Assembly: GCA_029856525.1 (NCBI GenBank)
Contig: JAHQXC010000061.1
Coordinates: 1 to 8,059 of the forward strand
Source of the DNA: Candidatus Odinarchaeia archaeon
GTDB lineage: Archaea > Asgardarchaeota > Odinarchaeia > Odinarchaeales > Odinarchaeaceae
Reading direction: 5' to 3'
Length of the DNA stretch: 8,059 nucleotides
In this document: positions 2,269 through 4,802 of the stretch, one piece after another
How positions within the stretch are numbered: the first letter of the stretch is position 1
How the letters are laid out: each line of letters starts with the position of its first letter
Made by a program: the position numbers and the translations under genes
Notes under the pieces: generated by a model
What the model saw: the letters and a program-made list of their open reading frames with translations, nothing else
Databases searched by the model: none
Told to the model about the DNA's origin: nothing

Positions 2269-2283
2269 CGAAAGCTTTATTAA
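2269..2283 (+). promoter_or_regulatory. BRE + TATA promoter of the tup operon
   Basis: CGAAAG followed by CTTTATTAA matches the classic archaeal BRE-TATA arrangement. The predicted TSS is about 2305-2307, giving a ~20-nt leader that contains the SD at 2314-2322. Confidence 0.65.
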
Positions 2284-2313
2284 TTTATATCGATATGTTT
2301 TTATAAGCCGATC

Positions 2314-2322
2314 GAGGTGATC
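2314..2322 (+). promoter_or_regulatory. Strong Shine-Dalgarno site (GAGGTGATC) for tupA
   Basis: It is a 9-nt match to the complement of the conserved 16S rRNA 3' end (GAUCACCUCC). Its GAGGT core sits 7 nt before ATA 2326, similar to the 6-nt spacing at ATG 342. Confidence 0.8.
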
Positions 2323-2325
2323 TAA

Positions 2326-3282
2326 ATACCCCCGCCAACCCAGCTTAAAGCCCTACTAGTAATAGGCATAGTCGCGGCTATAGGAGTTGGAGCGGCTTTC
2401 ACAATAGTAGAGTACACTACAACCCAGCGGAGGCTAATATTAGCGACTACAACCAGCCTCTATGATTCAGGTCTACTCGACTACCTGCTCCCATCCTTCG
2501 AAGCGAAATGGAGTGTCGACGTCCAGGTAATAGCTGTTGGAACAGGGCAGGCTTTAGCCCTAGGTAAATCCGGTGACTGCGATGTAGTTTTAGTTCACGC
2601 TAGAAGCCAGGAGGATGCTTTCGTAAACGAAGGCTACGGAGTTCACAGAGTAACAGTATGGTATAATGATTTCGTAATCGTCGGACCCCCGGACGATCCC
2701 GCTAATATAAAAGGGTTAAAAAACGCAACTGAAGCGTTCATCAGAATATATCATACCGGTGAAAACGATGGCTGCAACTTCTATTCTAGAGGAGACGGTT
2801 CAGGAACCGAGAGTAAAGAGGTCTCGATATGGGCGGCGACCGGTTTAGGTAGACCTGGTGAAACTCAAAGCTGGTATAAGAAAACAGGTCAAGGAATGGA
2901 GGCGACACTCATTATAACAAACAATGATCCTAAAGGATACACGTTAACTGATAGAGGAACCTATATATCTATACTCGACAAGCTTCAGTTCATCACAGTC
3001 CTGGTTGAAAACGATAAAATGCTATTAAACCCTTACAGTGCGATACCTGTTAACCCTCATATTTTCCCGAACGTCAACTACCAGGCTGCGTTGAAACTCA
3101 TAGCATATCTCTGCTCGCCTACAGGTCAACAGATGGTTAACAATTATAGAAAGAATAATCTGCAAATGTTCTTCGCCTGCTACGGGACCAGTAACTCTAC
3201 TGAACTAGGCTTCGATACAGATGAGCAGGTGGCGGAATACCTTAACTTCTGGAACCCTATTATTCAACTCTATTACCCTTAA
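2326..3282 (+). CDS. tupA: Tungstate ABC transporter substrate-binding protein TupA (318 aa, N-terminal membrane anchor, probable ATA start)
   Basis: The frame is open from 2326 (after in-frame TAA 2323) and continues into the 128-aa track ORF. Manual translation: (M)PPPTQLKALLVIGIVAAIGVGAAFTIVEYTTTQRRLILATTTSLYDSGLLDYLLPSFEAKWSVDVQVIAVGTGQALALGKSGDCDVVLVHARSQE...YNDFVIVGPPDDPA...FYSRGDGSGTESKE..W...WYKKTGQGM...YTLTDRGTY...LLNPYSAIPVNP. The TTTS motif (2446-2457), AVGTGQAL, VHA and SRGDxSGT are TupA hallmarks. The exact start codon is inferred. Confidence 0.92.
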   Translation: MPPPTQLKALLVIGIVAAIGVGAAFTIVEYTTTQRRLILATTTSLYDSGLLDYLLPSFEAKWSVDVQVIAVGTGQALALGKSGDCDVVLVHARSQEDAFVNEGYGVHRVTVWYNDFVIVGPPDDPANIKGLKNATEAFIRIYHTGENDGCNFYSRGDGSGTESKEVSIWAATGLGRPGETQSWYKKTGQGMEATLIITNNDPKGYTLTDRGTYISILDKLQFITVLVENDKMLLNPYSAIPVNPHIFPNVNYQAALKLIAYLCSPTGQQMVNNYRKNNLQMFFACYGTSNSTELGFDTDEQVAEYLNFWNPIIQLYYP

Positions 3283-3309: not shown

Positions 3310-4056
3310 ATGGGGAACCCTATAATTGACGGTATAATAAACGCGTTTATACTGTTATTTACAGGCGACCCGCGGATCTGGCAGGTAATACTACTATCAC
3401 TTAGAGTTACAGGGTTAGCTGTAGTCTACGCCTCTATGATAGGGATACCTGTCGGAGTTATCATAGGGATGAAAAATTTCTTCGGGAAAAATATGGTTGT
3501 CAGTTTAATAAACACTTTAATGGGGTTACCGCCGGTTGTAGTTGGCTTGATAGTTTTTCTACTAATCTCCAGATCAGGGCCTTTAGGAAGCCTGTCTTTA
3601 ATATACACGCCTACAGCGATAATGATAGGGCAGATAGTTATAGCCACACCTATTATTTCAGGGATCACGTTAGCTGCGGTAAGCTCCATAGACGCTTCAG
3701 TTATAGAGACAGCTAAATCACTTGGAGCTACACGCGCTCAAACATGGGCTTTAATAATAAGAGAGGCTAGGGTGGGTATCCTCAGCGGTGTTGCGATAGG
3801 ATTCGGACAGTCTATATCAGAGGTCGGCGCTAGCATGATATTAGGCGGGAACATTGAAGGTTTTACTAGAATTATGACCACGGATATAGTTCTTCAAACA
3901 GCTCAAGGCAACTACGGGGAGGCTTTAGCTCTAGGTATAATGTTAATATTAATAGCTTTTATAATAAACAGTTTAATCCTGACGAGACTCCAGTTTTCAT
4001 CTAAAAAACTAGCCGGTAAAAAGATTATGAGTCTAGGCGCGCTTTCAACACGTTAG
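3310..4056 (+). CDS. tupB: Tungstate ABC transporter permease TupB
   Basis: It contains TupB-type motifs (NTLMGLPPVVVGLIVFLLISRSGPLG, LIYTPTAIMIGQ, EAA loop ETAKSLGAT, FGQSISEVGASMILGGNIEGFTRIMTT). SD GAGGGGA lies upstream, and the gene sits between tupA and tupC. Confidence 0.93.
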   Translation: MGNPIIDGIINAFILLFTGDPRIWQVILLSLRVTGLAVVYASMIGIPVGVIIGMKNFFGKNMVVSLINTLMGLPPVVVGLIVFLLISRSGPLGSLSLIYTPTAIMIGQIVIATPIISGITLAAVSSIDASVIETAKSLGATRAQTWALIIREARVGILSGVAIGFGQSISEVGASMILGGNIEGFTRIMTTDIVLQTAQGNYGEALALGIMLILIAFIINSLILTRLQFSSKKLAGKKIMSLGALSTR

Positions 4057-4064
4057 GATGTGGG

Positions 4065-4802
4065 TTGATGAGCTTACTCAACTTGCATAAGGTTACAAAA
4101 ATATACAGTGACAGGTGTATTCTAAAAAATATCACGTTATCCGTTAAAAAAGGCGAGGTTTACGCGTTAATAGGGCCTAGCGGTGCAGGTAAGAGTACGC
4201 TGCTTAGAATTATAGATTTACTTGAAAAACCCTCTTCAGGGGAAGTGGTATTCGAAGGCGTTAGAACAAGTCTACTAAACGAGAATAGTATAATTCAGCT
4301 GAGAAGGAGAATGGCTTTACTATCCCAGAGAGTCGTTTTATTTAATATGAGCGTTTTCGGAAACGTAGCCTACGGGCTTAATCTAAGAAAAATTGATTAT
4401 AAAATTGTAAAAGAGAAGGTTAACGATGTTTTACAGCGTGTGGGAATGCTAGAGTACGCTGATCAGAACGCCCTGCTTTTATCAGGAGGAGAAGCTCAGC
4501 GTGTAGCTTTAGCTAGATGTATAGTTTTAGAACCGGAGCTCCTATTACTCGACGAGCCGACAGCTAACCTCGACCCTGCTAATGTAGCGTTAATTGAAAA
4601 TATAATAAGCGAGCTGAACACTAAAAATAAAACAACTATAATTATTGCAACTCATAATATGCTTCAGGCTAAAAGACTTGGAAGCAGAGTCGGATTCATA
4701 TTAAACGGGGAGCTGGTTGAAGAGGGGCCGCCGAGCCGGGTGTTCGACAACCCTATAGATGAGAGAACTAAAGCATTCATCGACGGGACTATGATATATT
4801 AA
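4065..4802 (+). CDS. tupC: Tungstate ABC transporter ATP-binding protein TupC
   Basis: It has Walker A GPSGAGKS, signature LSGGEAQRVALAR, Walker B/D-loop LLLDEPTANLDP and H-switch ATHN, with no C-terminal TOBE domain. The start is TTG 4065 or ATG 4068. It is the third gene of the tup operon. Confidence 0.9.
   Translation: MMSLLNLHKVTKIYSDRCILKNITLSVKKGEVYALIGPSGAGKSTLLRIIDLLEKPSSGEVVFEGVRTSLLNENSIIQLRRRMALLSQRVVLFNMSVFGNVAYGLNLRKIDYKIVKEKVNDVLQRVGMLEYADQNALLLSGGEAQRVALARCIVLEPELLLLDEPTANLDPANVALIENIISELNTKNKTTIIIATHNMLQAKRLGSRVGFILNGELVEEGPPSRVFDNPIDERTKAFIDGTMIY

Follow-up and report, generated by a model that had tools for sequence, protein, structure and literature searches.

The stretch of DNA analysed here, called the window, is an entire contig of 8,059 bp (JAHQXC010000061.1; C112) from a 1.32-Mb metagenome-assembled genome (MAG) of a Candidatus Odinarchaeia archaeon (GCA_029856525.1; G000). 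The genome falls in the genus Candidatus Odinarchaeum, which includes the closed 1.4-Mb genome of Ca. Odinarchaeum yellowstonii (G002). The window carries tupA, a gene for a TupA-like tungstate-binding protein, with tupB and tupC downstream. The original prediction, made from the window alone, held that tupA appears to start at a non-canonical ATA codon behind a very strong Shine-Dalgarno (SD) site. The comparisons described below make genuine AUA initiation at position 2326 the probable explanation, as one case of a use of near-cognate start codons that extends through the genus.

The tupA reading frame

The start region and the coding sequence of tupA comprise the following features.

2314..2322, plus strand: Shine-Dalgarno site GAGGTGATC, a 9-nt perfect complement of the 16S ribosomal RNA (rRNA) 3′ end
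2317..2325, plus strand: in-frame GTG ATC TAA, whose GTG (2317-2319) belongs to the SD site
2326..2328, plus strand: ATA, the proposed tupA start codon, with TAA (2323-2325) directly before it
2326..3282, plus strand: tupA, TupA-like tungstate-binding protein, 318 codons and then the stop codon TAA (3280-3282)
2350..2409, plus strand: N-terminal membrane anchor, residues ~9-28, seen in the translation and aligning with the anchors of orthologs
2446..2457, plus strand: TTTS motif, residues 41-44, seen in the translation; ATTTS (40-44) is kept in orthologs
2896..2898, plus strand: ATG, codon 191, the first in-frame ATG, GTG or TTG and the start of the 128-amino-acid public call

The sequence around the start reads GAG GTG ATC TAA ATA CCC CCG CCA ACC CAG. 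As originally described, the TupA frame is closed by TAA 2323-2325, no ATG, GTG or TTG occurs in it from 2326 to Met 2896, and the GAGGT core (2314-2318) lies 7 nt before the ATA. Translation and domain search bear out that the membrane anchor, the TTTS motif and most of the fold are encoded in the ~190 codons without a start; over half of the fold thus precedes the first canonical start. One element had been overlooked, namely the GTG at 2317-2319 within the SD, which is in the tupA frame and separated from the ATA by ATC TAA. Rescue by a frameshift at the C5 run was considered and rejected: both other frames are closed, one by TGA 2318 and the other by TAA 2304 with no later start, as had been noted, and the alignment with the closest relative (below) needs no shift. 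The expected shortening by automated annotation is found in practice. An open reading frame (ORF) listing restricted to canonical starts reports only the 128-amino-acid ORF for tupA, and the public product on record, from the Logan assembly of run SRR14702244, is the same 128-amino-acid protein beginning at codon 191.

The 3′ end of the 16S rRNA of G000 itself (on C11) reads ...GGATCACCTCCT and is also given as ...CTGCGGCTGGATCACCTCCT. Throughout this genome ATG is enriched 3-5 nt after GGTGAN. The ATA at 2326, 4 nt after GGTGAT, occupies the modal position.

The letters at the start were compared with those of the Logan contig of SRR14702244 (14x word depth), which are the same as in the window at 2317-2328. 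The two sequences differ at 2216, 2226 and 2236, and the Logan contig is therefore no copy of the MAG contig. SRR14702244 may be the MAG's own sample and so provides a second assembler, not an independent sample; among the runs searched it is the only one that contains this stretch. An assembly error at the tupA start is unlikely.

The product of the 318-codon frame matches PF12849 (PBP_like_2) over residues 33-265 (5.4e-37). Its sole family match is NF041772 (NCBIfam TupA), with 212.5 bits over residues 29-283; as the equivalog cut-off of 400 is not reached, specificity for tungstate or molybdate is presumed. Relatives of this TupA carry the JGI name tungstate-binding protein.

Start sites of tupA orthologs

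The tupA loci used for comparison came from members of the genus and the order and from public assemblies. The closest relative is a sister species of the same genus (G001), whose TupA is 84% identical in amino acids to that of the window (dS about 1.1). Identity to the window is 70% for the TupA of L023/L024 and 62% for that of L025-L027, from Odinarchaeia. Searches for related loci returned one distant relative among genome contigs, a Clostridia MAG with 44% identity, and one among metagenome contigs, likewise at 44%. The start regions are as follows.

Window tupA start: GAGGTGAT-ctaa-ATA CCC CCG CCA
G001 tupA start: GAGGTGAT-taat-ATA CCC CAA TTA TCC CCA
L023/L024 tupA start: GAGGTGAC-ggga-ATC AAC CAA CTT TCA CCA
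L025-L027 tupA start: GGGTGAT-ttac-ATG CCG CAA CTT TCC CCA

All share the layout GGTGAY, 4 nt and start, with ATG in L025-L027, ATA in the window and G001, and ATC in L023. The GTG start of a further genome, G006 (GTG GTA TCG CCA ACC CAA), aligns codon for codon with the window ATA. The ATG of L025-L027 stands at the orthologous site, which makes ATA 2326 the ancestral start position. The suggested comparison of ortholog start codons thus gave ATA, not ATG, in the sister species, and ATG at this site only in the more distant L025-L027. In addition, three more Logan assemblies of the species of G001 match it exactly in the start region. An ATA common to G001 and the window is neither an error nor a private mutation, and the alternative offered in the original prediction, a sequencing error or a private G>A change, loses its ground.

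GAGGTGA is unchanged in the window, G001 and L023, while the three have unrelated 4-nt spacers and upstream flanks. A kept GAGGTGA beside a diverged spacer and flank is the pattern of an SD with its spacer, not of codons 1-3 of a gene.

Public calls place the start at the GTG of the SD in G001 (P0002, MINIPQ...) and in L023 (P0003, MTGINQ...), where the frame is open. A 4-nt spacer invariably puts the GTG of GGTGAT in frame, and this frame is uninterrupted even in L025, which has an ATG next; the open GTG frames of G001 and L023 are therefore no evidence for a GTG start. GTG 2317 is without an SD of its own. For G001, the predicted TupA N-terminus is MPQLSPTQLK with an AUA start and MINIPQLSPTQLK with a GTG start. 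The window itself holds a local precedent for a start misplaced on the GTG of an SD, in the upstream ATP-binding cassette (ABC) ATPase gene (1468-1482). There, the ORF listing picks GTG 1471 inside AGAGGTG, and the Logan gene call is TTG 1480, 9 nt past GTG 1471 and 6 nt past AGAGGTG. The use of TTG starts in the window, part of the original prediction, fits this case of a TTG preceded by AGAGGTG, and among the SD-led starts of the genome TTG ranks second in frequency: the 252 SD-led first starts of G000 are 172 ATG, 68 TTG and 12 GTG.

In a tree of TupA, L023, the window with G001, and G002 with a fourth Odinarchaeum genome, G003, fall in one clade (support 94/95), and the outgroups have canonical starts at x-SPTQ. 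On this comparison the tupA start codon has turned over within the genus, as ATG, ATA, ATC or a new ATG.

The tupA genes of G003 (L003) and G002 (L005) have an ATG right after the right half of an operator-like palindrome (see below), in the arrangement AACATATCGATA-GAT/AAT-ATG, and no SD. Their sequence suggests a short-leader or leaderless start that may have replaced the ancestral SD-led one.

No other lesion is present across the 318 codons of tupA. Between the window and G001 the ratio of nonsynonymous to synonymous substitution rates (dN/dS), which is blind to very recent inactivation, is 0.085 overall (dS 1.1) and 0.092 in codons 1-190 (dS 0.88). With L023 as outgroup, unique amino acid changes number 17 in the window lineage and 14 in that of G001. 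Judged by these substitutions, purifying selection has acted on the part of the gene without a canonical start for almost the whole period since the split from G001.

Near-cognate starts elsewhere in the genus

In G000 we scanned long ORFs for SD-led codons that precede their first canonical start, and then checked the candidates in G001, G002 and G003, so that four Odinarchaeum genomes were searched for parallel start codons. In six genes, all four genomes have the same non-canonical codon after an SD, at the N-terminus demanded by homology. They are listed with their position and their SD, spacer and codon in G000, and with the first canonical start in the four genomes.

C110 5406-6659, plus strand: priS, GGTGA-aaaaaa-ATA; first canonical start +31, +19, +31, +83
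C14 41106-41597, minus strand: HIT-family gene, GGTGA-cctgaa-ATA; first canonical start +47, +5, +47, +14
C124 10742-11302, plus strand: LbH acetyltransferase, GAGGTGAT-aaaaa-ATA; first canonical start +8, +8, +60, +8
C111 20741-21643, minus strand: moaA, AGGAGG-agtaaaa-ATA; first canonical start +39, +21, -13 (G001, an upstream TTG), +39
C46 679-1968, plus strand: aspS, GGTGA-gataa-ACG; first canonical start +13, +13, +13, +5
C121 702-1310, plus strand: hisH, AGGAGTGAT-ttaaa-CTG; first canonical start +54, +35, +28, +13

In these six genes the first canonical start shifts between genomes while the near-cognate codon stays. For moaA, it lies at or past the CxxxCxxC cluster in three of the four genomes. 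The aspS product begins TQRTH, where other aspartyl-tRNA synthetases (AspRS) presumably have M-x-RTH, and in two genomes a TAA is immediately upstream of the ACG. The genome survey for SD-led ATA starts that had been proposed thus gave four genes (priS, HIT, LbH acetyltransferase and moaA) with ATA kept throughout, and the suspicion of relaxed, SD-driven initiation is strengthened by six genes that keep ATA, ACG or CTG.

Further candidates were seen in G000 only, or are ambiguous.

C54 3305-5257, plus strand: NuoL/Mrp-like gene, ACG candidate, G000 only; first canonical start 139 codons later
C105 173-1915, plus strand: ClC channel, ACG candidate, G000 only
C75 6679-7107, minus strand: RNase H, CTG candidate, G000 only
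C1 16923-17459 and C80 9774-10172, both minus strand: two ORFs without any canonical start (ATC, ATT), G000 only
C11 5806-6825, plus strand: radA, ATT, ambiguous, as a TTG 31 codons downstream also fits

ATC 12506 on C124 was discarded as a candidate, since the N-terminus of the epimerase fits a Met that lies 10 codons further on. At the start-less N-termini of G000, an SD precedes near-cognate codons 2-4 fold more often than other codons (Fisher p about 0.002-0.003).

We also observed AA at positions -2/-1 in 8/9 of the G000 near-cognate candidates, against 25% of the 252 canonical SD-led starts (binomial p about 1e-4), a post hoc pattern that arises partly from adjacent TAA stops and is not strict in relatives.

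The initiator tRNA-Met gene of G000, with orthologs in L063, L064 and L065, lies on C11 at about 9855-10012 (L052 106-262), and three or four introns interrupt it. Its anticodon is CAU, with a GGG/CCC stem, and it was called by ARAGORN only on a manually spliced version; the exon boundaries of this splice are a guess. On the unspliced MAG, ARAGORN found few tRNAs and no tRNA-Met, owing to introns, and an Rfam search missed the initiator gene with its introns. A search for an initiator-like tRNA with anticodon UAU gave only GGGCTTATAACCC-like matches that lie inside protein-coding ORFs. With no UAU initiator, near-cognate codons must be read with one mismatch.

In the manual splice, the initiator tRNA has an A at 72 opposite A1, not the usual A1:U72, and this is identical in the four genomes of the genus.

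Transcription and initiation at tupA

Around the start region and downstream, the window has the following elements.

2276..2283, plus strand: TATA-like box TTTATTAA, from sequence; predicted transcription start site (TSS) ~2305-2307, giving a leader of ~20 nt that includes the SD
2290..2315, no strand assigned: degenerate palindromic operator-like element TCGATATG-N10-CCGATCGA, right half with 2 mismatches
2298-2306: second TATA-like box, in the operator spacer; predicted TSS ~2327-2331
3310..4056, plus strand: tupB, permease, with an ATG preceded by GAGGGGAT
4065..4802, plus strand: tupC, ABC ATPase, with start TTG 4065 or ATG 4068

The TSS predictions follow the archaeal TATA-to-TSS distance of -26/-27. 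A scan with sigma-70 promoter and terminator models, which are not applicable to archaea, found nothing. The tupB product scores 165.7 bits against NF041773 (TupB), where the cut-off of 320 is not reached, and passes the general ABC_perm1 model. The order tupA-tupB-tupC also occurs in the loci of relatives.

In front of tupA, 11 of ~20 Asgard loci, from several families, carry a palindrome CGATATG-N9-10-CATATCG, with the variant CGTTATG...CATAACG (L002, L003, L004, L005, L006, L010, L012, L013, L015, L019 and L025), and a TATA-like box usually lies within its spacer. We take it to resemble ModE-type molybdate/tungstate operators. No regulator gene was found in the window, and a search for CGATATG-N8-12-CATATCG across G000 gave no convincing further sites.

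The start-site orthology, the ATA of the sister species and the parallel genes together support genuine AUA initiation, the first of the two options in the original prediction. In this mechanism, the 3′ end of the 16S rRNA would pair with the 9-nt SD GAGGTGATC, and the AUA, 4 nt after GGTGAT, would be placed in the P site. The normal initiator tRNA (anticodon CAU) would be accepted there despite the third-position mismatch. TupA would begin Met-Pro-Pro-Pro-Thr-Gln, as (M)PPPTQLK followed by the membrane anchor, an N-terminus of the same type as that of the ATG-started ortholog, MPQLSPTQTK. The GTG inside the SD would be incidental, the 4-nt spacer always putting it in frame. That the ribosome initiates at this AUA, how efficiently it does so, that the first residue is Met, and that the transcript includes the SD are points that we infer. 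The associated idea of a weak start codon that tunes the level of TupA found no support.

Initiation at tupA would then exemplify a broader tendency of Odinarchaeum to retain SD-led AUA, ACG or CUG in a minority of its genes, some of them essential. We lean, if only slightly, towards the view that start recognition in Odinarchaeum is relaxed or differently tuned, with SD-placed AUA, ACG and CUG as regular, stable starts for perhaps 1-2% of genes, including those for primase and AspRS. The cause might lie in aIF1/aIF2 or in the initiator tRNA, with its A:A at 1:72 (in the manual splice).

Several points weigh against AUA initiation at 2326. If the TATA-like box at 2298-2306 is the promoter, the SD is untranscribed and the mRNA is leaderless or starts past the ATA. 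The tupA start is not uniform in the genus (ATA, ATA, ATC, and in G002/G003 another N-terminus with ATG). The frames of G001 and L023 are open from the GTG of the SD, which could be the working start there, and the TAA of the window could then be a fresh null mutation, invisible to dN/dS. In those bacteria in which AUA has been measured, it initiates very poorly. Finally, a 2020 review of archaeal initiation names AUG, GUG and UUG only (PMC7531240). Our literature search turned up no description of ATA, ACG or CTG starts in archaea, Asgard lineages included, and the paper on the closed Odinarchaeum genome does not mention start codons.

The main rival explanation is a recent loss of a GTG start. 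It supposes that the start moved to GTG 2317 in an ancestor shared by the window, G001 and L023, after the ATG had decayed to ATA or ATC, and that the later TAA cut off the window tupA, leaving a young pseudogene or trace expression. The public calls of G001 and L023 do begin at that GTG with open frames, the start codon did turn over (ATA/ATA/ATC) with a different ATG acquired by G002/G003, and the sequence of the window is known from one sample. However, the GTG of GGTGAT is automatically in frame, two random codons are open ~91% of the time, and the frame is open in L025 too. GTG 2317 would moreover have to work with no SD of its own, as a start that is rare in this genome (12/252), whereas GAGGTGA is kept as a unit. 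The 318 codons show no other lesion, the lineage-specific amino acid change equals that of G001, and essential genes of these genomes certainly rely on ATA, ACG or CTG. We consider this loss rather unlikely.

Less probable still is a recoding or coupling event, that is, translation of a GTG-ATC-TAA mini-ORF with re-initiation on the AUA, read-through of the TAA, or mRNA editing (AUA to AUI, read as AUG). The stop codon and the ATA do directly adjoin, and ACG starts could in principle be edited from C to U to give AUG, as in plant organelles. Against this, no mini-ORF is common to the other ATA, ACG and CTG genes, CTG is not convertible to AUG by A-to-I or C-to-U editing, and G001 and L023 have the same layout of SD and near-cognate codon without the stop. 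To our knowledge, read-through of TAA has not been established in archaea, nor has editing of mRNA. An error within 2323-2328, hiding a sense codon at 2323 or an ATG at 2326, is very unlikely: the source MAG is fragmented into 127 contigs, but the 14x Logan contig has the same letters there and differs elsewhere, the ATA recurs in G001 in a region identical in three further runs, and the spacers of G001 and the window differ by three substitutions, not one.

Such relaxed start recognition in the genus, if true, would be seen in motion at tupA, where an ancestral ATG has been replaced by ATA or ATC and the SD kept or strengthened. It would mean that an archaeal lineage close to eukaryotes naturally uses a eukaryote-like set of near-cognate codons, and that an archaeal, eukaryote-type machinery can routinely work on such codons when an SD fixes their position. 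Odinarchaeum would then offer a natural system for how aIF1, aIF2 and the initiator tRNA set start-codon stringency, and in tupA one start site has itself turned over in evolution (ATG, ATA, ATC, or a new ATG). Gene callers limited to ATG, GTG and TTG shorten tupA, or misplace the start of the sister species on the GTG of the SD, and priS, aspS, moaA, hisH and other Odinarchaeum genes are likewise truncated. Such truncation leads to systematically clipped N-termini in the proteomes used for studies of Asgard archaea and eukaryogenesis.

Compared with the TupA of TupABC transporters, the protein has the PBP fold, the TTTS motif and the gene order tupA-tupB-tupC in common; it differs in its NF041772 score below 400 and in having a membrane anchor at the N-terminus, a trait of other archaeal binding proteins too. 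With the six Odinarchaeum genes, tupA shares the genomes, the type of SD, the spacing and the truncation by gene callers. Their codons, however, are invariant in four genomes and have no in-frame canonical alternative, whereas tupA shows codon turnover and an in-frame GTG inside its SD, closed only in the window.

ATA is among the possible starts of NCBI translation table 11. In Escherichia coli, infC (encoding IF3) and pcnB have AUU start codons, and that of infC serves autoregulation through the discrimination of IF3 against non-canonical starts. As in these two genes, a conserved AUN codon behind an SD would be the sole start of tupA, missed by gene finders that accept ATG, GTG and TTG. The autoregulatory loop, in contrast, belongs to infC; nothing links TupA to initiation fidelity, and the likeness is one of resemblance only. 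Odinarchaeum moreover has archaeal machinery (aIF1, aIF1A, aIF2) and a different codon, AUA, and the phenomenon extends to many unrelated genes of the genus.

Near-cognate initiation in eukaryotes, at codons such as CUG, ACG and AUA, is under the control of eIF1 and eIF5 (e.g. PMC3950347, PMC13754004). The likeness to Odinarchaeum lies in one-mismatch codons (AUA, ACG, CUG) that would be read by the normal initiator tRNA, in an Asgard host with eukaryote-type factors. Unlike eukaryotes, Odinarchaeum would rely on positioning by the SD, not on scanning and Kozak context, and its near-cognate codons would be the sole starts of housekeeping genes, not alternative or regulatory ones.

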